Of a DNA stretch of 64,000 nt, positions 9,257 through 42,483 are shown piece by piece. This DNA comes from Nitrosopumilus sp. (lineage in GTDB: Archaea > Thermoproteota > Nitrososphaeria > Nitrososphaerales > Nitrosopumilaceae). Every line of letters starts with the position of its first letter. Position 1 is the stretch's first letter. Location of the stretch: assembly GCA_965219345.1 (NCBI GenBank), contig OZ244732.1:608001-672000 (forward strand), in the 5' to 3' direction. The position numbers were made by a program, and so were the translations under genes. Under the pieces are notes generated by a model that was not told where the DNA came from, ran no database searches, and saw only the letters and a program-made list of their open reading frames with translations.

Positions 9257-9403
9257 TTAGACGAATTCTGAAACTAATTTTTCATCTACAACCTTTATCT
9301 TCAAAGTCTTGTCATCTTGAAAGATCAGAGTTAATCCGCCTTCTGAATCAGGATCTTCTATCTTTACAAGTTCTACCATTTTGATTGAATCATATTTTCC
9401 CAT
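9257..9403 (-). CDS. 48-aa small protein, paralog of 9414-9566
   Basis: MGKYDSIKMVELVKIEDPDSEGGLTLIFQDDKTLKIKVVDEKLVSEFV; GGTGA SD upstream. Confidence 0.8.
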   Translation of the reverse strand: MGKYDSIKMVELVKIEDPDSEGGLTLIFQDDKTLKIKVVDEKLVSEFV

Positions 9404-9413
9404 TTACATTCAC

Positions 9414-9566
9414 CTATTCTGGAATCGATACGGTCTCAATTTTTCCATCAACTACTTTTACGAACAAAAACCTGTTGTCTTTAATAATAAAGGTAATTCC
9501 ACCTTCCTTATCTGGTTCTTCTACTTCGAGTATTGGTTGTCCTAACAGACCATCGTATTTTGCCAT
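9414..9566 (-). CDS. 50-aa small protein, paralog of 9257-9403
   Basis: MAKYDGLLGQPILEVEEPDKEGGITFIIKDNRFLFVKVVDGKIETVSIPE. Confidence 0.8.
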   Translation of the reverse strand: MAKYDGLLGQPILEVEEPDKEGGITFIIKDNRFLFVKVVDGKIETVSIPE

Positions 9567-9714
9567 GTTGATTCAATTAAAAAGTTCCTTATATCCCTAA
9601 TTGACTAGAATATTTTTTTATAATAACCGACATTTCAGTCACATGTCAGTCCGTTACAGGACTGCATTTGTTGACCAGTTCTATTTTTTCCTATTTTGTA
9701 ATTTTTTGAGCCTG

Positions 9715-9990
9715 ATGGTGACAAAAAAAGCAGTATTTTTAGTAGATTTACTGTTGGAAGGAGACATCAGGCTACGAGATGGAATGATTGATCCTTCAAA
9801 GATGTGGAATTCTGAAAATGATCAGTTTCACAGTTTAGTTCAAACATTTGCCGGACTATTGGATCAGAATATTCTGATTTTGAAAACATTGAGAAAGGAG
9901 CTTGTAGGAAATTGCAAGCATCCCAAAAGAATGAGAGATAAAACCTCCAAAGGACAGTGGTATTGAATGAATTGTAATTTAGATTTATGA
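9715..9990 (+). pseudogene. C-terminal Zn-finger protein (CxH...CxxC) with in-frame TGA at a conserved Cys
   Basis: ...CKHPKRMRDKTSKGQWY*MNCNLDL aligns to ...CKHPKKYQDRMKNGSLYCMNCNIDL of 37644-37913; TGA at 9964-9966. Confidence 0.8.
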
Positions 9991-10006
9991 TTTGTTTTTC
10001 TTAATA

Positions 10007-10654
10007 TTATGGATCTCTACTTGTATCATCACCATTCATTGTTATTTTACCAACACATGGATCCTCTACATCAACAAATTTCTCTGCGTCACTCATAACT
10101 CTCATCATGGCAAATGCTCTAATCTTTGCGTTTGGAAATGCTTCGGCTAATCTGTTCACTCCTCCCATAATTGTAGATCCGCGTGTAATTATGTCATCCA
10201 CCAGAACAATTTCTTTTGGCTCAAACAGCAATTCTTTCACTTTCATTGATTCATAGTGTTGAAATGCTTTCGGTCTATTTGCCCCAACTCTCTGACCAGA
10301 TGATCTTGTAACAGCTATCGCTCTCTCTAAACATTCTTCTGATGATTTACCTAATCCGTTATTGATCATTGCGGATGTGATACGTTGTGGTACCCAAAGT
10401 GTACCTGGTTTTATCAATGAACTCTTGGGAGTTGGTACTAGAATTGTATTTGAATTAAAATAATCTGCAAATGGAAATGTATCGATTTCTTTTTTCATCG
10501 CCTGAACAATATATTCTGATGTTAAAACACCTGAATTCAAAACATTATCATTTTTTAGATTAATCATTGCTGTTTTTGCTCCCTTGGCTTTTTCTGAACT
10601 TCCACGTGGAGCGTACGTGAGCAACGAACCAAATTCAACTTCAGATACGTTCAT
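10007..10654 (-). CDS. Type I phosphoribosyltransferase (ComF-like, conflict-associated)
   Basis: LVPTP and IVLVDDIITRGSTI PRPP-binding loop. Confidence 0.88.
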   Translation of the reverse strand: MNVSEVEFGSLLTYAPRGSSEKAKGAKTAMINLKNDNVLNSGVLTSEYIVQAMKKEIDTFPFADYFNSNTILVPTPKSSLIKPGTLWVPQRITSAMINNGLGKSSEECLERAIAVTRSSGQRVGANRPKAFQHYESMKVKELLFEPKEIVLVDDIITRGSTIMGGVNRLAEAFPNAKIRAFAMMRVMSDAEKFVDVEDPCVGKITMNGDDTSRDP

Positions 10655-10659
10655 CGTGA

Positions 10660-11355
10660 CTATCTTTGAAACAATTCTGGCATTTTAACATTTGATGGAA
10701 GGACTTCTAAAATATCTAAAGGATCATCAAGTTCTATCGCGCCATATTCTATCATTTCTTTTGGCCATTTTAATTTTGGATTGTGTACCACTTGTTTACA
10801 GATAAACAATGGTCTTCCCAAACGTATTGTTTCCCATCCTTGATATAATGTTCCACTGCCATCTCCTGCTTCTACAATTACAGAAGCATCAGAGATTAAT
10901 GCCATTGTACGATTACGTAAAGCAAAATCTTTAGGAGTAGTTTTGTAACCTACTTGATATTGAGAAATAACTAGATGATTTTTCATAATCTCTTCTTGCA
11001 ATTCCGCATTTTCTTTTGGATATGTTTTGTTTAATGGTGTTCCAAGTACTGCAATTGTTTTACCGCCATTTTTAATTGCTGTTTTATGTCCTACCGAATC
11101 AATTCCTTTTGCAAGTCCACTCACAATTGTAACATCATGTTCTATGAGAATTTTTGAAACTTCTTCGGCAGCTAAAAGTCCCTCTTCCGTTGGTTGTCTT
11201 GTACCAATAATGGAAACTCTTGCACATGGTAATGGTGGTGTTATTTTTCCTTTATAGTAAATTATTGGAGGCGCATATTTTTTTTCAATATCATTTAATG
11301 GACGACCAAGTAAATTCTTCAAGTCAATGGATTGATATTCTAATTCTTCTTCCAT
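10660..11355 (-). CDS. dprA: DprA/Smf (SLOG superfamily) stand-alone Rossmann domain
   Basis: SIIGTR, IVSGLAKGIDSVGH, TIAVLGT, YPKEN, FALRNR, IVEAGDGSGT. Confidence 0.93.
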   Translation of the reverse strand: MEEELEYQSIDLKNLLGRPLNDIEKKYAPPIIYYKGKITPPLPCARVSIIGTRQPTEEGLLAAEEVSKILIEHDVTIVSGLAKGIDSVGHKTAIKNGGKTIAVLGTPLNKTYPKENAELQEEIMKNHLVISQYQVGYKTTPKDFALRNRTMALISDASVIVEAGDGSGTLYQGWETIRLGRPLFICKQVVHNPKLKWPKEMIEYGAIELDDPLDILEVLPSNVKMPELFQR

Positions 11356-11524
11356 TTCCTTTCATATATTACGCGATCGGGTCTTTTTTAAAACTTTCAG
11401 GAAGGGGTTAGCTAACATGAACATAATCATACTCCAATTTACCTATTCTAGAATTAAAAATTACTCATCAATATACAGAAATCTCAAGTCAGTATTTTTA
11501 CCAAATTCTAATTCTTCTTCCATT
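11337..11524. repeat. 20-bp direct repeat duplicating the dprA start region
   Basis: ATTCTAATTCTTCTTCCATT at 11337-11356 and 11505-11524; both read MEEELE on the minus strand. Confidence 0.8.
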
Positions 11525-11650
11525 CATATCAGATTCATGATTGAAGAGCGAAATACCATCTCCAAATAGTCTCAAATGAGCCTAACGGAGTATGATATTG
11601 TAATCTTTGAGCATGAAAAGAGACTCATAACTTTCTTTGTATATCTGTGG

Positions 11651-12586
11651 CTAATCAGGAGAATAGAAACTCTTTCCAGCACACAAGATGTCTACATGTC
11701 TAGCACCATTATCCATCAACAATTTAGCACATATCTCTATCGTACCACCAGACACCAACACATCATCAACTAACAAAATCTTTTTGTTGATTATTTCACT
11801 ATTGTTTAAAATTCTATGTTGCTCTTCAGCTAATTTTTTTCTTGCATATATGCCTAAATTTTTACGATTATCTTCTGATTCTTCTATTTTTTCTAATGCA
11901 TCTAACACACATGGCTTTCCAAGCTTCTTTGCAAGACTTAATGCAATAGATACACCTTTACAAATTTGTGGATTATCTGATTCGTGGTTTGGAGCTGGAA
12001 CAATTACATCAATGTTGAGCTTGTTATTTTCCTGTAAATATTCCAACATTCTTGTACTGATAATTTCAGATGAATCTCTTGATTTGTTTGTGTAAATTTG
12101 CATAGAAAATTTGTCTTTAATGGCTTTTTCATAATCTCTTTTTCTGGTATAATAATCTCCACAATAATTTAATTCAAATTCACGTTTTTCCAATTCATGT
12201 TTTAAATTATTTAATAATCTGGGATGTTCACCATCTTTAATTCTAGAAATTAAATCATCATATTCTGGATATAGTCTTACATCTGGATCTACAAGTTTTT
12301 TTAACAATTTTTCATAATGCATTTTCATTTTATCACCTATTCTAGAATCTTCTATTGAATCAAAAATTTCAGTCATGATGTTCTCTATTGCCTCACAATA
12401 CATCTTTTGAGCAAAACTTTCTCTTCCTTGTCCATAAAGTGAATCGCCTTTCAATTCTAAAATTTCAGATTCATTTTCTCCTGCTTTGATTAATAATTGA
12501 AATGTATCTTCGGCCGCCCTGAAATTCTTCTCTTTCAAAAATTCTTTACCTTGTCGAATTAGCTCGTCTTTTTTTATTTTTGACAT
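11651..12586 (-). CDS. N-terminal TPR-like repeat fused to a ComF-like phosphoribosyltransferase
   Basis: TPR-like helices (LIRQGKEFLKEKNFRAAEDTF...LELKGDSLYGQG); IVPAP; ILLVDDVLVSGGTIEICAKLL. Confidence 0.85.
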   Translation of the reverse strand: MSKIKKDELIRQGKEFLKEKNFRAAEDTFQLLIKAGENESEILELKGDSLYGQGRESFAQKMYCEAIENIMTEIFDSIEDSRIGDKMKMHYEKLLKKLVDPDVRLYPEYDDLISRIKDGEHPRLLNNLKHELEKREFELNYCGDYYTRKRDYEKAIKDKFSMQIYTNKSRDSSEIISTRMLEYLQENNKLNIDVIVPAPNHESDNPQICKGVSIALSLAKKLGKPCVLDALEKIEESEDNRKNLGIYARKKLAEEQHRILNNSEIINKKILLVDDVLVSGGTIEICAKLLMDNGARHVDILCAGKSFYSPD

Positions 12587-12592
12587 AATTGC

Positions 12593-12931
12593 TTATGAAA
12601 AGATGAAATTAACATTTTGTAATGAGCATGTACACGTGGAATAATGCCAAAAACATGCCTTTTCTATATGAGATCGATTATTTTCATGCCTAGACAGACT
12701 CAAATCTTCTTTTCTGATAGGAGACTCCAATTTCATATTTGCAGCTTCTATCCATCTGTTTTTCCATTCATTGTTTATTCTAATAATATTCAATGTAGAA
12801 CTACACATTTTACATTTGTACAAGAGACCACTGTTCCTACCAGAATTCATTAATTTTCTTTCAATCTGAGTGCCATACAATCTATGATTATGTCCACAAA
12901 TTCCACACGTAATTGTTCTCTTATTGGACAT
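12593..12931 (-). CDS. Cys/His-rich zinc-ribbon hypothetical protein
   Basis: CGICG, CKMC, C-terminal H..C..H..CTC; stop 6 bp before the TPR-PRTase start. Confidence 0.6.
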   Translation of the reverse strand: MSNKRTITCGICGHNHRLYGTQIERKLMNSGRNSGLLYKCKMCSSTLNIIRINNEWKNRWIEAANMKLESPIRKEDLSLSRHENNRSHIEKACFWHYSTCTCSLQNVNFIFS

Positions 12932-13032
12932 TTTTATCGAAAAAAGCAGAATGTATTGTCATCAGATACATTTCTTGCAAGAACCTAATGTATCAGATCG
13001 ATCAACTCTATTTACAAAACATGTGAGATTAT

Positions 13033-13365
13033 TTGATATCATTTTTGTTGTATTGCAACTATGAATATCGTAGACGCAAGGTCATTCTTGATGAGGATAT
13101 ACTAAAAGTCTCATCAAGTCAAGAACTAAAAGAACAATTCACACAAGTAACATCAATAGGAAAAATCAAGGAACTACCAGCAGGCTCAAAGGATGAAAAA
13201 ATTGGTGCCTATTGTTATGAGCATGGCTGTGACTTGATCATAGCAGACAAACGAGCTTATGACAAATTCTTCAGAGATGCACGCATAAAATCAGTGATAA
13301 TTTCAAACTATGGTATATTCAAAGAGGGAAAACGACTGATATACAGAATACAAATTATCAATTAA
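13033..13365 (+). CDS. PIN-like (DUF5615/Mut7-C N-terminal type) protein; start uncertain
   Basis: KVILDEDI...GSKDEKIGAYCYEHGCDLIIADK acidic PIN pattern. Confidence 0.6.
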   Translation: MISFLLYCNYEYRRRKVILDEDILKVSSSQELKEQFTQVTSIGKIKELPAGSKDEKIGAYCYEHGCDLIIADKRAYDKFFRDARIKSVIISNYGIFKEGKRLIYRIQIIN

Positions 13366-13374
13366 CTAACAATA

Positions 13375-14300
13375 TTACATTCTTTTAGGACGTGGAAGTT
13401 TGAATCCCGATTTTGTAGGAATATCTTCTGGAATTGCTTCATGATATCCATGTAACAGTTGATACATTACTTTATTCAGAAGTGGCATTTCAAATCTACC
13501 TTCTGAGTAATCCATATAGAAATCCAATGATTCATCATCCTGATAGAAAAACTCTACAATTGATTCATACCAATCATTTCTTGGTTTTTTATCATAGATA
13601 ATCACCTTTCTCATCTCTTCAATCTCTGAAAATACAGAGCTGTTAAAACTTCTACTGAGAATTAATGATTTTCTCTTTTCATAAAGTCTGACTCCTATCG
13701 TATCAGCTATTATTCCAAAATTCAAATACATTTCATCATCAAGATCTATTCTTTTCTTTTGATAAGATCCTTAATGGGAATCAAACTCAAATCTTTTACA
13801 AAATTCAAAGAAGTTTTTTCTAACAGTTGTTTTAAAAAACAAAAGAAGAGATGATTTCTTGCAGCATTATCTATTAAAGAACTTAATTGTTGATTATTCA
13901 GTTCAAAACCTAATGCAAAAAGACACCCCTTGATAGAAAGAAAATACATAGATGTCTTTGTAGTGACAACAATCTTATCACCAGTTTGAATAACATAGTT
14001 ATTCTCAATTAAACCTGGATATCTTTTTCCAATCTTTTTTCCTCCAGATTTTTTCTCATATCTCCCATTAATTATTACGTTGTATTTGTTACGCAATGTG
14101 TTTTTTTGTAGAGGATTGTTTTGATAGTAGTTTGAATTTGAAACAAATTTTTCCATTTCTGATGTAATACTTGGTCCAAGAATTGCTAATGATAAAACAA
14201 TCTCAAATGCGTGTCTTTTTCCTCTTTCTTTTTCATAAAGATTTGGTGTGTCTTTTGAAAAATATGTTGAAATAATATCTGTATCGGGAATTAACAACAT
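13375..14300 (-). pseudogene. Putative wHTH-like regulator split by a 1-nt frameshift near 13750
   Basis: KDLIKRKE* continues as RIDLDDEMYLNFG in the adjacent frame across AAAAGAAAAGAATAG. Confidence 0.65.
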
Positions 14301-14329
14301 ACCATAGAATACTGGCTATGGTATACCAT
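14299..14329. promoter_or_regulatory. Operator-like inverted repeats in a divergent promoter
   Basis: ATACCATAG-N8-CTATGGTAT (14299-14324) overlapping the palindrome ATGGTATACCAT (14318-14329). Confidence 0.6.
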
Positions 14330-14350
14330 TAATTAATTATTAACTAATTC

Positions 14351-14491
14351 ATGCCCAAAATCATAACATCGGTATCAATTCCCTTGGAATTACTACGAGA
14401 AATTGATGAGAAAAGAGATCACATCTCAAGAAGCAGTTTTTGTCCGAGTCTTATTGAGATTGGCCTAAAACAAAAGGAGATATCCAAATGA
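14351..14491 (+). CDS. Ribbon-helix-helix (CopG-like) DNA-binding protein, 46 aa
   Basis: MPKIITSVSIPLELLREIDEKRDHISRSSFCPSLIEIGL, typical RHH pattern. Confidence 0.8.
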   Translation: MPKIITSVSIPLELLREIDEKRDHISRSSFCPSLIEIGLKQKEISK

Positions 14492-14580
14492 AAGACACAA
14501 GTCTTGGATTTCTTACTTCGTATTCTTTGCATGGTAAAATCATTATTGCAATAGAAGAAAAATGGAAAAATTTCTTCTAG
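14488..14580 (+). pseudogene. Short or truncated ORF translationally coupled (ATGA) to the RHH gene
   Basis: MKDTSLGFLTSYSLHGKIIIAIEEKWKNFF*. Confidence 0.4.
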
Positions 14581-14584
14581 GATT

Positions 14585-14736
14585 CCACAGAATTTCAAGA
14601 ACCCTTTTGTTTTTCCTGTGATTGCATTCTTGTAACCATTAACAGTTGCAGTACTATGTGAAACTGCATAACAAGAATCAAGATATTCTTGCAAAGCTTG
14701 TTCTGAATTTTCAAAATTCATTCTAACTGTCATCAA
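14585..14736 (-). pseudogene. Probable N-terminal stub of a tyrosine integrase
   Basis: ALQEYLDSCYAVSHSTATVNGYKNAI resembles the SxxTxxxY N-terminal helix of tyrosine recombinases; no catalytic domain follows. Confidence 0.5.
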
Positions 14737-14801
14737 GACAGGTAATTCGATTACTGTTAAAAATCCCTAGTCGTTATTTTTAGTAAATCTTGAGCCTAAC
14801 C

Positions 14802-15338
14802 CTAATTGATTATGATCTCAATCTCGCTGGAATTATTTTTGATACTTCCTGGTTCTGTATAGTCATGCTTTTGCCATGATGCAAATGCTTCAGCCCCAAC
14901 CTTGTGCTTACCTTTTCCCAAATCTGATGCTTTGAATACAAATTTTTCATTAAAATCAAATAATTCTTGTCTTACCTCTTCTTCTGAAAGTCTGATAAAT
15001 GGCTCAAAGTTTTTGGCCACTTGAACCCATATTCTTCTATCTTTCATAGGATTGACTAGTTTTGGGTTTCTTGTCCAAAAGATTGATGCCTTTCTGTAGG
15101 TATCAACAGTCCTACCTAATTCCTTCTTTCTGAATCCTCCTGACGTCAATTTTACACCGTATTTCATTTTGAATCCGACATCATTGTTGTTGTATGCTTT
15201 TGTCCAATTTGTCTCATTGAACGTATCTCTAATGTCTCCTTCAACTAAAAACTGGACCTCTATCTCAATATTATCATCAGATGGGTACTCATCCTGGGAC
15301 TTTACTAATCGAATCTCTGAAATCTTGCTTTCTGTCAT
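14802..15338 (-). CDS. Hypothetical protein
   Basis: 178-aa ORF with host-like composition, divergent from rpo11. Confidence 0.75.
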   Translation of the reverse strand: MTESKISEIRLVKSQDEYPSDDNIEIEVQFLVEGDIRDTFNETNWTKAYNNNDVGFKMKYGVKLTSGGFRKKELGRTVDTYRKASIFWTRNPKLVNPMKDRRIWVQVAKNFEPFIRLSEEEVRQELFDFNEKFVFKASDLGKGKHKVGAEAFASWQKHDYTEPGSIKNNSSEIEIIIN

Positions 15339-39760: not shown

Positions 39761-39893
39761 ATTGAACAGTGTCGAATTTTTGTGGAATTAAACTAGTTTT
39801 TTGAGATCCAAAACTGAACACTTGGATAAAATTTATCATGTCCCTAGTTTACAGCAATTTGGACAGATCCCGTAGATTGAACAGTGCCGAATT
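39761..39893. repeat. 18-bp direct repeat (1 mismatch), with an inverted partial copy at 37556-37569
   Basis: ATTGAACAGTGTCGAATT (39761-39778), ATTGAACAGTGCCGAATT (39876-39893); rc TTGAACAGTTTCGA at 37556-37569. Confidence 0.75.
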
Positions 39894-39988
39894 GGTTCCT
39901 GCGCGTGCGCCTGATCCATCGCAATTCCGGACGCGGCCAACAGAAGGAGGCCGAGCGCGACGTGTTGGTATTGCATGCCGTTAATCAT
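39890..39988 (-). pseudogene. Signal-peptide stub of a truncated secreted protein
   Basis: MINGMQYQHVALGLLLLAASGIAMDQAHA|QEP, ending where GC drops. Confidence 0.6.
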
Positions 39989-41304
39989 GTTTTTCACCGC
40001 TCCTCACTTTGGCCGATTCTGGTATGTCTATTCTCTCAAGCCAGTCCTCGTCCAATTTCGAGATCTGGCCGATCCAGGCTATCTCGCCTGCAGTTGCCTC
40101 TATTGCGATCACCTGGGCCATTGAGCCACCATGGCCACCCCTCTCAACAAACGGAGGGTATTGGCAATATCCCACGAGCACAGTATAGAAAGGCACTCCG
40201 GCACGCATACCACGTCCAGCCAGTTCACCTTCATCAGCAGGTTCGAATGTGCACTTTTCTTCATCGTACAAATCCACATGCCTCATGGCAAAGTCAAAGG
40301 CAAGTTTTTCTATCTGGCTTGCTGGCAACAGGGTGCCTTCCTCATAATCATCAACCTGCAAGCCGCGAAATTCCAGTAGCAAGTACGGCTTGATGAAATC
40401 GTAATCGACGAAGCTCCAGACGCTCATGTTAAGCCAGCTTCCATACACAATTGTACCTGTACGTCCGCTGTTTAGTCCGAAGATTGGAAACCCTGCATTC
40501 TCCATGAGGGATCTGAGTAATTCGTCGCGCTCTCCGTATGGGATATTCTCGTATATCCTGTACTCTATCCTCGTTATGACATCCGGGTATTCCGAGTTTG
40601 ACCACGTACGGAACTTGTTGCCCATTTCGGTTACATATGTGACATGGCCGTATTCCGACCTGCTAACTGCCGGGAGGATCAGCTTGTCCCCGATTCCGCT
40701 TGCAAGGCGGGGCATGACGGTATTTACTGCCTCTTCCGTCAGGACCGGTAACCAGACTCCAGACGGGTTTGCCATTCTTTTTTCTACCCCGGACAGGGTT
40801 ATCTTGTTGTCTGCCACGTAGTAGAGCGGCTCGTACACGGATGTCAGGCTTTCATTTGCGGGGGGTGCATGGCCTGACACGGGCAGACTCGGGGACGTTT
40901 CAGATGCATCCGCGGGGGCACTTGGTTGTGCCGAGTCCGGGGTGCTGCCTGACTCTGGAGTGCCCGTTTTTTGTTCTGGTTGTGGCAACGCCTCCCATCC
41001 GCGCAGGACCAGTCTTTCTGCCGTGTCTGGATAGACGCATGCGATCGTGCCGCTGGGAGATCTTAGGAGGATCTTTTCATCATTGCACCGGACGTCGGCA
41101 ACTGCCACGCCCTGTTGCAGCTGCTTTAGGGGCGACGGCGCGTAAAGATGCGTCGGTGCCGCGTGTGCTGCCAGAGACCAGCAACACTGCCATCACGATG
41201 CAGAAAAGCGCGATAGTTGGGATGCCCAAGGCCGCGTTTTGGGAAACGCGCGAAAAGTGATCACCATGATGACAAGTTGTGGAATGCATGGGAACCATTA
41301 CCAT
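39981..41304 (-). pseudogene. GC-rich secreted protein with the thaumarchaeal SPLKQ...C...ACV...L..RGW domain; frameshift in signal peptide near 41175
   Basis: Frame A ...CIVMAVLLVS joins frame B LAAHAAPTHLYAPSPLKQLQQGVAVADVRC...IACVYPDTAERLVLRGW. Confidence 0.75.
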
Positions 41305-41406
41305 AATCCAAATTCAAAGTTAATAAGGAATTCTTCAATCGGTTCTGTAACATCTTCGGATGTTAGACATAAAATCAGATCTTATTCGTGTTAACTGCCG
41401 TCGCTT

Positions 41407-41547
41407 TTACAGAAAAAAGAATAGTGTTACCTTCAACCATCCGATTGCCCTCTCAAGAACATTGACATCCTCGTTGAATTTACCAATGCTAGAATTACAG
41501 CTTCCACATATCCGGCCCCTTATTTTCCTGTCTTGTGATTATGATAA
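41407..41547 (-). pseudogene. Endonuclease VII-family (His-Me) C-terminal remnant
   Basis: YHNHKTGK/(I)RGRICGSCNSSIGKFNEDVNVLERAIGWLK with a 1-nt frameshift. Confidence 0.7.
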
Positions 41548-42483
41548 GCCCTGTCATTTTGTGTGCATGGTTTTCATCATGTTTTCTTGTAGCTAATGTA
41601 AAGGAATATGCCCTAAAACTATGAGATGTAATTTTGTAAAATCCGTTTGATGAGTATTTTTCATTATATCCTAATCTTTCCAAGACACTTGCCATTGTCA
41701 TTCGTTCTGCTCTTCCCCTAGTTTTGAAATCTCCTGTACTATTTGTAAAAACATAATCATCATCATTTAATTTGTGAAAATAAGTCATAATTTTCTCTCC
41801 ATATTCTTTTGAAACAAATGTTGTTCTACCAGCTTTGGTTTTTGTATATTCAGCATCAATCCTAATTGTTATTCTATCCAATGACAAATCCAAATCTTTT
41901 TTCTTAATGTGCAGTGCCTCCCCTGATCTCATTCCAGAACTACTGCAAGCCAAATACAATGCCTGTCTCTTTAGATTACGTGCTTGAGCTATACCAAATC
42001 TCTTAGTTCTTGTTTCTTTAGTGGATATTTTTCTTCAACAATCTTTCTTGGAAATCTTAGTATCTGTTTGATGTCTTGAGGATTTGTTTTTACTCCTAGA
42101 GAATAAAGAAATGTTCTGAGTATACTAAATCTAGTTCTGATTGTATAAGCTCCTGCTTTCTTTGAAATATTCCAGTCTATCCATTCTTGAAGGAAACTAT
42201 ACAGTGCATCTTCATATTCTTCGTCTCCTTGTTGCTTTTTTATTATAATTAACTCCCCGCAGATTTGATCAGGTGTACTTTGATGCTTTTCTAGAACAAA
42301 TTTCTTAAAATTATTAATCGCAGCTTGAATATTTTCTCGTGAGTTTGTAGGTAACGAGACATGTATCACCGAGTTCTGTGCCTATTTTGATTTGGCTTGA
42401 ATATTTTCTCGTGAGTTTGTAGGTAACGAGGCTAATTTTTCTTCATAATCCCTTGTTGTTTTCTTTTTGGTAAGAATACTCAT
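41548..42483 (-). pseudogene. Tyrosine recombinase/integrase, disrupted by a 72-bp insertion, a frameshift near 41990 and C-terminal truncation
   Basis: SSGMRSGE (R), TKTK (K), HSFRAY (HxxR), ends at KMTG before the second His and catalytic Tyr. Confidence 0.9.
42323..42430. repeat. 36-bp perfect direct repeat flanking a 36-bp unique insert
   Basis: GCTTGAATATTTTCTCGTGAGTTTGTAGGTAACGAG at 42323-42358 and 42395-42430. Confidence 0.95.

Follow-up and report, generated by a model that had tools for sequence, protein, structure and literature searches.

Gene content of the locus

The window analysed here is a stretch of 64,000 nucleotides from Nitrosopumilus sp. An ORF check of the window confirmed the four co-directional minus-strand ORFs that an earlier note had described (Table 1). 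From left to right they encode proteins of 215, 231, 311 and 112 aa and are separated by gaps of 5, 295 and 6 bp; the two short gaps, between the DprA-like and short PRTase genes and between the Zn-ribbon and 311-aa PRTase genes, also agreed with that description.

Table 1. Features of the locus (positions in the window)
Feature	Position	Strand	Remarks
attL-like direct repeat TATCCCTAATTGACTA	9592..9607	.	left island end; repeat family D13
Small island ORF	9601..9966	+	convergent to short PRTase; lacks the C-terminal CxxC-bearing end of its homologues
Short ShosT-like PRTase, putative toxin, 215 aa	10007..10654	-	PADLOC ShosT match
DprA-like Rossmann-core protein, putative antitoxin (ShosA-like), 231 aa	10660..11355	-	PADLOC ShosA, Pfam PF02481
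TATA-like box TTTTAAAAAA	11384..11393	-	~34 nt upstream of DprA ATG
Relic of DprA 5′ end	11478..11524	-	inside the 295-bp gap; repeat of DprA start
Rare ComF-like PRTase, helical N-terminal region, 311 aa	11651..12586	-	Pfam Pribosyltran
Zn-ribbon ORF, 112 aa	12593..12931	-	~75-aa family member plus 35-aa read-through extension
Three orphan island ORFs	13033..13365; 13375..13731; 13746..14300	+; -; -	within 13033..14300
Tyrosine-recombinase gene remnant	14587..14736	-	first ~50 codons
attR-like direct repeat TAACCCTAATTGATTA	14797..14812	.	overlaps stop codon of conserved flanking gene 14802-15338

The island is a small integrated element

All four genes are carried as cargo by a site-specifically integrated element of 5.2 kb (9601-14801). 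The site was empty in 5/5 congeners checked, with a single att core at the junction in four of them, and the same att repeat pair flanks the island in genome G177. These are the marks of an integrative element, its flanking repeats being a single copy at empty sites, and its integrase is present as a remnant only. This remnant is 88% identical to residues 1-50 of a 207-aa G177 gene, which matches Pfam Phage_integrase at 1.6e-4, below the cut-off. The locus is a documented case, in ammonia-oxidising archaea, of a small integrative element whose att sites are defined.

The small ORF at the left end gave no family match in profile searches; its homologues beside the pair in the closely related metagenome contig L039 (94 aa) and in G177 (91 aa) end ...GQWYCMNCNLDL, while the window copy stops at GQWY. 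For the three orphan ORFs there was no passing Pfam, NCBIfam, PADLOC or PHROG match and no relative among 20 family loci. The description of the island as pseudogenised thus holds for the integrase remnant and the C-terminally truncated small ORF, but the other island ORFs are intact orphans. At the same integration site, congeners hold divergent cassette alleles, a remnant, or nothing.

A minimal DprA-PRTase pair of the ShosTA class

Pfam PF02481 matched the DprA-like protein at 1.4e-50 over residues 26-206 of 231, and the PADLOC ShosA model PDLC03961 matched it at 4.5e-73 (244 bits) but aligned only from model position 92 of 303, confirming the earlier description of the protein as the Rossmann core only. 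Absent is the N-terminal SAM domain of E. coli ShosA, which spans residues 1-94 in the available text of PMC11961720 and whose deletion destabilised ShosA (PMC12961424). Weaker matches were to the PsyrA model (6.4e-24), the long-form model PDLC02997 (only 9e-22) and Pfam SLOG cluster4 (8.4e-6, 25.9 bits against a cut-off of 26.3). Among solved structures the nearest relative was a true ssDNA-binding DprA, 3uqz (1e-28), and ShosA itself (9vzo) matched at about 5e-22.

When ShosA residue numbers were mapped onto the 9vzo chain with an offset of 4, inferred from the chain, R53 and R147 of the DprA-like protein aligned to ShosA R139 and R234, the arginines essential for ssDNA binding and antitoxin function (PMC12961424); both were invariant in 16 sequences. 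The ShosA RecA-contact residue K200 corresponds to K114 (mostly basic in the family) and R206 to Q120 in this alignment, the host having RadA and not RecA; K95/N96 stand in place of the ShosA dimer residues L181/F182. In a tree made with FastTree only, bacterial plasmid and phage copies of DprA formed a separate outer branch and archaeal copies fell in clades of their own.

The 215-aa PRTase matched the PADLOC ShosT model PDLC03962 at 2e-18, with about 65 bits compared with only 32 and 20 bits for the housekeeping PRTases of the host genome; the long-form ShosT model PDLC03012 gave no match to it. The N-terminal pyrophosphatase-like domain of ShosT is absent, and outside the PRPP loop we found no specific similarity to E. 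coli ShosT, whether the crystallised or the P2-type protein. The PRTase domains that had been assigned to both the 215-aa and the 311-aa protein were borne out, with intact PRPP loops (VLVDDIITRGST and LLVDDVLVSGGT, respectively). D153/D154, G159 and T161 are invariant across 16 short-PRTase homologues; in E. coli ShosT, a D331A/D332A mutant had its toxicity abolished, according to the available text of PMC11961720.

Taken alone the PADLOC models are unspecific, since at E<=0.001 ShosA hit 10/14 and ShosT 13/14 control genomes. The scores of the pair (244 + 65 bits) are comparable to those of a short pair on a Chryseobacterium plasmid (250 + 83 bits), and the two model matches together with the conserved pairing described below support the earlier assignment of DprA and PRTase to a ShosTA-class toxin-antitoxin/defence module.

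Pairing and preferential PRTase decay in relatives

An alignment of 16 PRTase sequences was too divergent for a locus scan, and an 8-sequence subset served to collect PRTase-seeded loci. In 75 of 80 such loci, most of them archaeal, the gene immediately preceding the PRTase on its strand was DprA, and three of the five exceptions lie at contig ends. Conversely, a PRTase homologue was found directly downstream of DprA in 25/29 family loci. The order DprA-then-PRTase also appeared in all plasmids (3/3), phages (2/2) and IMG/VR contigs (4/4) inspected, the phages including E. coli P2_4C9 (349 aa + 424 aa, 1-nt gap between the genes).

Within the family the pair is patchy, occurring in 32/200 other genomes and 13/27 genera (9 weaker DprA matches uninspected). 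In a set of 32 loci DprA was intact in 31 and the PRTase in only 19; of the other loci, 8 had a broken PRTase and 5 lacked it. In the PRTase-seeded search only 2/26 genomes had a PRTase match without a DprA match, and both matches were broken fragments. The PRTase thus decays far more often than DprA, as expected if the PRTase is the toxin, and such toxin-first decay among relatives backs the assignment of toxin and antitoxin in archaea indirectly, at the genomic level; we found no experimental work on any archaeal ShosTA member in the literature searched. The breaks are ordinary nonsense mutations, such as TGA at the invariant W87. TGA recoding was considered for the broken homologues and rejected, because stops occur at W87, R127 and other ordinary positions and include TAA and TAG.

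Comparison with L039 indicated purifying selection on all three of the genes compared, with dN/dS of 0.07 for the DprA-like gene, 0.18 for the short PRTase and 0.29 for the 311-aa PRTase. The retention of the pair while its mobile island decays is consistent with addiction or selection, as had been proposed. On the other hand, an uninterrupted PRTase with DprA broken or absent was seen in 3 loci of 80 (L113, L117 and L128), which, unless they are assembly errors, would argue against strict addiction.

The gap upstream of DprA

The TATA-like box in the 295-bp gap is the putative promoter of the DprA cassette itself. It lies within a block of roughly 110 bp that is near-identical in L039, the remainder of the gap having diverged, and DprA is preceded by a recognisable copy of the box in 5/17 other loci. 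The gap also holds a relic of the DprA 5′ end, located ~125 nt downstream of the 311-aa PRTase stop. A perfect 20-nt repeat of the DprA start (11337-11356 and 11505-11524, repeat D4) is part of a similarity that runs for about 45 nt, the relic reading MEEELEFGKNTDLRFLYIDE* and the real start MEEELEYQSIDLKNLL...

The 311-aa PRTase and the Zn-ribbon ORF as probable lineage-specific cargo

Pfam Pribosyltran matched the 311-aa PRTase at 2.9e-7, and the PsyrT and ShosT models matched it at 7e-12 and 1.2e-11, respectively, the latter with 48 bits and thus above the housekeeping PRTases. The TPR label that the earlier note had attached to its N-terminal part was weak: TPR_16 scored 15.9 bits (E 0.018) against a cut-off of 32.7, and TPR_2 14.8 against 27. 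The AlphaFold model has an all-helical N-terminus that is confident only at residues 1-50 (mean pLDDT 58.6), and a fold search with this low-confidence model gave no TPR structure match, only weak PRTase-domain rows with E of at least 0.025. With a 77%-identical homologue standing in for the protein, Atlas TPR clusters scored only 0.76-0.78, and residues ~124-308 of that homologue superposed on ComF-family models.

The gene is rare. Only 5 close homologues were found among 5.8 billion clusters, the N-terminal 165 aa occurred in 0/400 other phylum genomes sampled, and scans of genome contigs and viral contigs gave no match. It adjoins the DprA-PRTase pair in 0/29 family loci and 0/80 wider loci. 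A TPR-PRTase that never co-occurs with the pair, an outcome that the earlier note had itself named as refuting its proposal, is essentially what was observed, L039 being the sole co-occurrence. This contig keeps the order 311-aa PRTase, gap, DprA, PRTase, but another gene stands where the window has the Zn-ribbon. Its DprA is 95% identical to that of the window, and dS between the two loci is 0.28-0.44.

In the Zn-ribbon ORF the CxxC...CxxC motif is visible. The 6-bp spacing to the 311-aa PRTase is the product of a lost stop codon: compared with the sole database homologue (77 aa) and five same-genus homologues (about 73 aa), the ORF carries 35 additional C-terminal residues. Zn-ribbon homologues were found in 5/150 congeners, in different settings, and two of these homologues immediately precede a PolB-exo-like gene; none adjoins the DprA-PRTase pair (0/29 and 0/80 loci), and viral contigs gave no match. 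A split ComFC, with Zn-ribbon and PRTase as separate ORFs, was rejected on account of these other contexts and the differing upstream gene in L039. Both genes are probably cargo peculiar to this lineage, carried in the element's variable part, and are not conserved components of the cassette.

Discussion

The host of this minimal ShosTA-type cassette is an ammonia-oxidising archaeon, in which the cassette sits on a small decayed mobile island. The earlier note had proposed a four-gene system with two PRTases, the TPR-fused one acting as a sensor. We consider it probable that this finding combines two unrelated things on one mobile island, a self-contained minimal ShosTA-type cassette carried as cargo of the 5.2-kb integrated element, and a ComF-like PRTase with a Zn-ribbon as lineage-specific cargo. 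This corrects an over-extended reading, in that the conserved unit consists of two genes, not four, of ShosTA type. Nor is a thaumarchaeal variant new as a category, because ShosTA is already recorded as widespread in archaea in the available text of one survey (bioRxiv 10.1101/2024.10.26.620412), and defence surveys, as far as their available text goes, count it among the commonest archaeal systems.

The cassette would run from its own promoter through the DprA-like gene and the 5-bp gap to the short PRTase gene. By analogy with E. coli ShosTA, the PRTase would be a toxin that interferes with nucleotide metabolism and replication, its invariant DD loop binding PRPP. The DprA-like protein may act as an antitoxin indirectly, through ssDNA binding by R53 and R147, and probably by recruiting a recombinase, which in an archaeon would be RadA. 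Should the antitoxin fail, because of a shut-off imposed by a virus, because viral ssDNA titrates it or because the element is lost, the toxin could then arrest or kill the cell, with abortive infection and/or addiction to the element as the outcome.

It appears unlikely that the 311-aa PRTase serves a system of three or four genes as its second effector or its sensor, for example as a second toxin under the same DprA (T-A-T) with the Zn-ribbon as an accessory. The co-directional genes, the PsyrT and ShosT matches, the low dN/dS and a PRPP loop that is invariant in the family of the 311-aa PRTase speak for such a system. In addition, the trio kept under purifying selection in L039 and the DprA relic behind the 311-aa PRTase, which suggests an old adjacency, make a functional link possible in this lineage. 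Yet L039 is too close for its synteny to count, the 295-bp gap, which carries the cassette's own conserved promoter-like box, lies between DprA and the 311-aa PRTase, the canonical order is DprA then PRTase (E. coli included), the N-terminal domain is found nowhere else in the phylum sample, and neither extra gene accompanies the pair in other loci. Somewhat less likely still is a specific form of this idea, in which one minimal DprA antitoxin of this Nitrosopumilus lineage, working via RadA, guards two PRTase toxins, the short ShosT-like one and the rare ComF-derived one, the latter sensing a viral protein with its variable helical N-terminus; if true, this would give the DprA family its first function in archaea.

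A comparably small chance attaches to the same pair with another mode of neutralisation, in which the DprA/SLOG fold binds or hydrolyses a nucleotide made by the PRTase, like a LOG-type phosphoribohydrolase, or binds the PRTase directly (type II-like). The near-cut-off SLOG cluster4 score would fit, and the invariant Gly-rich stretch VEAG..SG...QGWE of the DprA-like protein recalls the LOG-family motif, PGGxGTxxE. The missing SAM domain, RecA contact R206 and dimer residues point the same way, as does an archaeal partner that would be RadA, no DprA-RadA interaction having been found in the literature examined. Against this stand the two invariant ssDNA-binding arginines, the closeness to 3uqz and, for direct binding, the absence of mutual binding between E. 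coli ShosT and ShosA in two studies (PMC11961720, in its available text, and PMC12961424). That the genes serve competence-type DNA uptake or processing (ComF + DprA), and not conflict, is very improbable. The DprA family match and the ComF-like features of both PRTases (TIGR00201 at 4.5e-11 for the 311-aa and 5.4e-4 for the short PRTase; ComF-family structural neighbours) would suit it, but scores fall under the curated cut-offs (TIGR00732 dprA, 148 bits against 191; TIGR00201 comF, 43 and 20 bits against 233) and ComEC (PF03772) was not found in the 99.5%-complete genome although the same family was found in 11/14 controls. Grouping with competence ComF/DprA, an outcome that the earlier note had named as refuting its proposal, is not supported. 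Moreover, the double zinc ribbon of ComF, present in relatives, is missing from both PRTases, and the pair is patchily distributed, is carried here by an integrated element and is also found in plasmids and phages.

Comparison with known systems

The two-gene cassette can be set beside the ShosTA of E. coli, a DprA-like ShosA with the PRTase ShosT (Pu 2025, PMC11961720, and the Millman 2022 preprint and Rousset 2022, PMC9122126, all in their available text; Yang 2026, PMC12961424). In both systems the DprA-like gene stands immediately ahead of a co-directional PRTase gene; both also have a mobile-element location, matches to both family-wide PADLOC models, and conserved PRPP-loop aspartates and ssDNA-binding arginines. 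In contrast, the window pair is half the size (231 versus 349 aa, without SAM; 215 versus 424 aa, without the pyrophosphatase-like N-domain), lacks comparable long-form model matches, and has a toxin without pairwise similarity to ShosT beyond the PRPP loop; the recombinase would be RadA, not RecA.

Closer in size are short pairs of bacterial plasmids and P2-like phages (Paracoccus p7, Chryseobacterium p1, Allochromatium pALVIN01 and Burkholderia phage Mana), with about 223-282 aa + 203-225 aa in the same order and genes overlapping or near-touching. Their DprA proteins are 43-52% identical to that of the window and the plasmid PRTases 29-31%, and among the genes next to them are replication/partition genes, other TA genes and integrases; they differ in having bacterial hosts and in their separate branch of the DprA tree. 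PsyrTA/RqlHI, a RecQ-like helicase-PRTase toxin with a DprA-like antitoxin, shares the antitoxin type, and the PRTase domain of PsyrT resembles the 311-aa PRTase, but the helicase domain is absent at this locus and scores are much lower than with the ShosTA models. The competence PRTase ComFC, with its N-terminal double zinc ribbon, resembles the PRTase core of the 311-aa protein, in which a helical region of ~165 aa replaces the zinc ribbon; the protein scores far below the ComF cut-off in a genome without ComEC. Among ShosTA systems the archaeal form is the smallest version, a Rossmann core plus a bare PRTase, and shows which domains are dispensable; its compactness suits it to testing how a DprA-like protein holds a PRTase in check in a host that has RadA as its recombinase.

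A DprA-PRTase pair among four minus-strand ORFs

The window has a G+C content of about 0.32 and comes from a 1.91-Mb genome that is 99.5% complete, the records of its relatives being titled Nitrosopumilus and Nitrosopumilaceae. The four minus-strand ORFs listed in the earlier note were confirmed at the place it gave, and the gaps between them measure 5, 295 and 6 bp, in order. Its description of the DprA-like protein as a bare Rossmann core also held, PF02481 (1.4e-50) covering residues 26-206.

Positions of genes and elements in the window
Feature	Position	Strand	Length
Short PRTase	10007-10654	-	215 aa
DprA-like protein	10660-11355	-	231 aa
Second PRTase	11651-12586	-	311 aa
Cys-rich ORF (Zn-ribbon)	12593-12931	-	112 aa
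Relic of DprA 5′ end	11478-11524	-	~45 nt
Island	9601-14801		
TATCCCTAATTGAT core, left copy	9592-9607		
TATCCCTAATTGAT core, right copy	14797-14812		
Left flanking ORF	9385-9600		
Right flanking ORF	14802-15338		
Tandem small ORF	9257-9403	-	48 aa
Tandem small ORF	9414-9566	-	50 aa
G+C-rich patch	39884-42369		
ORF within patch	39981-41108	-	375 aa
Recombinase-like fragment	41495-41959	-	
Recombinase-like fragment	41989-42369	-	

The PADLOC ShosA model (DprA-like antitoxin) matched the DprA protein at 4.5e-73, and the ShosT model (PRTase toxin) matched the 215-aa PRTase at 2e-18. Because these models alone were unspecific, matching 10/14 (ShosA) and 13/14 (ShosT) control genomes, bit scores were calibrated on other systems.

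Bit scores with the PADLOC ShosA and ShosT models
Query	ShosA	ShosT
E. coli P2_4C9 system (349 aa + 424 aa)	284	180
Burkholderia phage Mana short pair	323	141
Chryseobacterium plasmid pair	250	83
Window's pair	244	65
Window's 311-aa PRTase		48
Housekeeping PRTases of source genome		32 and 20

Gene pairing was stronger evidence for the identity of the pair than the model scores. DprA was matched in 32 of 200 other family genomes and 13 of 27 genera, and in 1 of 16 sampled congeners; a short-PRTase homologue lay directly downstream in 25 of the 29 loci that this DprA-seeded search returned. When 185,579 species genomes were scanned with the PRTase as seed, 205 relatives were obtained, the best 80 of which were used. 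Among these best 80, 76 titles were archaeal (Nitrosopumilaceae, Nitrosotalea, Nitrosotenuis, Nitrososphaeraceae, Bathyarchaeia, Woesearchaeota, Nanoarchaeota and Methanosarcinales) and 4 were bacterial, and a same-strand DprA lay directly upstream of the PRTase in 75; the other five were three contig ends, one PRTase fragment and one locus (L113) truly without DprA. Bacterial plasmids (245 records matching DprA) carried the short pair, likewise with DprA first and often with overlapping genes, in 3/3 inspected, P2-like phages (39 matching records) carried it in the same order in the two inspected, and it was present in 4/4 IMG/VR contigs found. DprA also precedes the PRTase in the long form of E. 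coli, and the order in the window is therefore canonical.

In a FastTree phylogeny of 76 DprA sequences, from which 8 of the 80 loci were excluded as short or interrupted matches, ammonia-oxidisers (44 rows, support 100) and Bathyarchaeota (18 rows, support 97) formed clades, and plasmid and bacterial rows fell outside both. Two sequences titled Leptospiria bacterium (L083) and Paceibacter (L074) nested within the Nitrosopumilaceae clade, the former being almost identical to a Nitrosopumilus sequence; both are probably mis-binned archaeal contigs.

Proposed toxin and antitoxin roles

We infer that the short PRTase would be the toxin and DprA the antitoxin from work in E. coli, conserved residues, asymmetric decay of the two genes and selection. 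According to PMC11961720 and PMC12961424, E. coli ShosT is toxic and its toxicity requires the PRPP-loop aspartates; ShosA rescues without binding ShosT, and rescue requires both ssDNA binding (R139, R234) and RecA binding. The acidic pair D153/D154 of the short PRTase was invariant among 16 sequences. ShosA R139 and R234 aligned to DprA R53 and R147, both invariant, and K200 aligned to K114, which is mostly basic across the family. Conservation was not seen for R261 (aligned to W174), the RecA contact R206 (Q120) or the dimer residues L181/F182 (K95/N96).

At the 32 family loci, an inspected set lying apart from 9 weaker DprA matches of the 200-genome search, DprA was intact in 31, and the PRTase was intact in 19, with broken copies in 8 and no detectable copy in 5. 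The PRTase lesions were ordinary nonsense or frameshift mutations. As a control for DprA seeding, the same 200 genomes were searched with the PRTase: 26 matched, of which all but two also matched DprA, and those two (G195 and G097) held broken fragments. Counter-examples, with an uninterrupted PRTase and a split, stopped or absent DprA, numbered three among the best 80 of 205 PRTase relatives (L117, L128 and L113). When the closely related contig L039 was used for comparison, dN/dS was 0.07 for DprA, 0.18 for the short PRTase and 0.29 for the 311-aa PRTase, the last comprising 0.41 for the N-terminal part and 0.18 for the PRTase domain.

The 311-aa PRTase and the Zn-ribbon ORF

The earlier note had joined all four ORFs into one system with two PRTases. 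Such a system is not supported, as the 311-aa PRTase adjoined the pair in 0 of 29 family loci and in 0 of the best 80 of 205 PRTase relatives. The sole exception was L039, a metagenome contig of the same lineage (DprA 95% identical), where the gene upstream of the 311-aa PRTase encodes a predicted membrane protein of 216 aa in place of the Zn-ribbon. The TPR label attached to this PRTase is also weak, the best TPR model reaching 15.9 bits vs. a cut-off of 32.7. Its AlphaFold model, built on a 7-sequence alignment, had a mean pLDDT of 58.6 and a helical N-terminus (residues 1-133) that was confident for residues 1-50 only, and a structure search with it returned weak PRTase rows only.

Close relatives of the 311-aa PRTase were few. 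Among 5.8 billion protein clusters there were only five (67-77% identity) and one further match, a 30%-identical 'ComFC'. A profile search of 1.84 billion representatives recovered its own cluster and one 432-aa protein that differs at the N-terminus but shares 44% identity across residues 91-307. The remaining matches, thousands in number, were ComF-like proteins of ~230-250 aa bearing a double zinc ribbon. None of 400 other genomes drawn from across the phylum matched its first 165 residues, and the 200 family genomes contained no close relative, the best match being a ComF-like gene of 29% identity in G048. At L032 700-3492 in G048, a ComF-like PRTase (249 aa, CxxC motif) is flanked by a Cys-rich protein of 411 aa and by a protein of 262 aa with a zinc-ribbon motif at its start. 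G048 gave no DprA match with the window's DprA as query, and this arrangement is possibly a different PRTase-based system.

The Zn-ribbon had a single database homologue (77 aa, 88% identity), and further homologues occurred in 5/150 congeners. All of them end near residue 77, and therefore the window copy carries a 35-aa read-through tail, which creates the apparent 6-bp coupling to the PRTase. None of the five congener homologues was followed by a PRTase, and in two congeners the downstream gene was PolB-exonuclease-like. In the two congener loci L141 and L142, a Zn-ribbon gene of ~73 aa immediately precedes a PolB-exonuclease-like gene of 258-259 aa and lies opposite a conserved gene, which encodes 340 aa in L141 and 108 aa in L142; such an arrangement possibly represents a small mobile module in Nitrosopumilus. 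L039 735-790 contains an A/T box (TTATAAAA) ~30 nt before the ATG of the 311-aa PRTase. At this site, inside the read-through tail, window positions 12593-12700 appear ~11 nt shorter, so that the window's 311-aa PRTase gene may depend on upstream transcription.

The island and the region upstream of DprA

Homologues of the two flanking ORFs abut in 5/5 other congeners examined, with a single TATCCCTAATTGAT at the empty junction in 4/5. In the window the TATCCCTAATTGAT core is duplicated, the copies being 5205 nt apart and the right one overlapping the flanking gene's stop codon, and beside the island's right end is the beginning (~50 codons) of a gene resembling tyrosine recombinases. The repeats, empty sites and recombinase remnant therefore identify the four genes as cargo of a decayed integrative element. 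The same repeats surround a 5.3-kb island in the congener G177 (L052 5899-11211). On that island the pair is present as a divergent allele, with 58% and 49% identity compared with 82-94% for the flanking genes, together with transposase-like ORFs, a gene for a PIN-domain protein and a recombinase fragment of 207 aa. In the congener G195, only the 3′ two-thirds of the PRTase was kept at the island site. The putative att site behaves like a hotspot whose cargo can be exchanged; the cassette is the island's conserved left-end module, and its variable cargo consists of the 311-aa PRTase, the Zn-ribbon and three orphan ORFs.

Just outside the left end, two tandem paralogous small ORFs (containing ...EDPDSEGGLTLIF... 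and ...EEPDKEGGITFII...) overlap the plus-strand ORF that served as a synteny marker. Elsewhere, the G+C-rich patch (0.47 vs. about 0.32), with its 375-aa ORF and two adjacent fragments resembling a split tyrosine recombinase, is probably another foreign insertion.

In archaeal promoters the TATA box lies about 26 nt ahead of the transcription start. Within the gap of 295 bp, the ~110 bp nearest DprA were almost identical between the window and L039, and the remainder had diverged. This block contains TTTTAAAAAA about 34 nt before the DprA ATG, a box recognisable upstream of DprA in 5/17 other loci and a candidate for the cassette's own promoter. The gap also holds the DprA relic, 168 nt upstream of the real start and containing an exact 20-nt repeat of the sequence around that start codon, which suggests that an earlier cassette was replaced by recombination.

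Relation to known systems

The pair forms a genuine minimal cassette of the ShosTA type, well conserved and carried by a small integrative element. A competence reading was rejected, as dprA and comF models scored below their cut-offs and the source genome contains no ComEC. ShosTA and DprA-PRTase pairs are described as toxin-antitoxin/defence systems in the Millman preprint and Rousset 2022, and one survey reports ShosTA as enriched in Asgard archaea (PMC11291487). No experiments on an archaeal or minimal form were reported in the literature searched. Both the E. coli P2_4C9 system and the window have DprA followed by PRTase, with a gap of 1 nt in the former and 5 bp in the latter, and the E. 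coli proteins are 349 and 424 aa long compared with 231 and 215 aa in the window. E. coli ShosA has a SAM domain, assigned to residues 1-94 in PMC11961720, whereas the window's DprA, to which the PADLOC ShosA model aligned from model position 92 onward, consists of the Rossmann core only.
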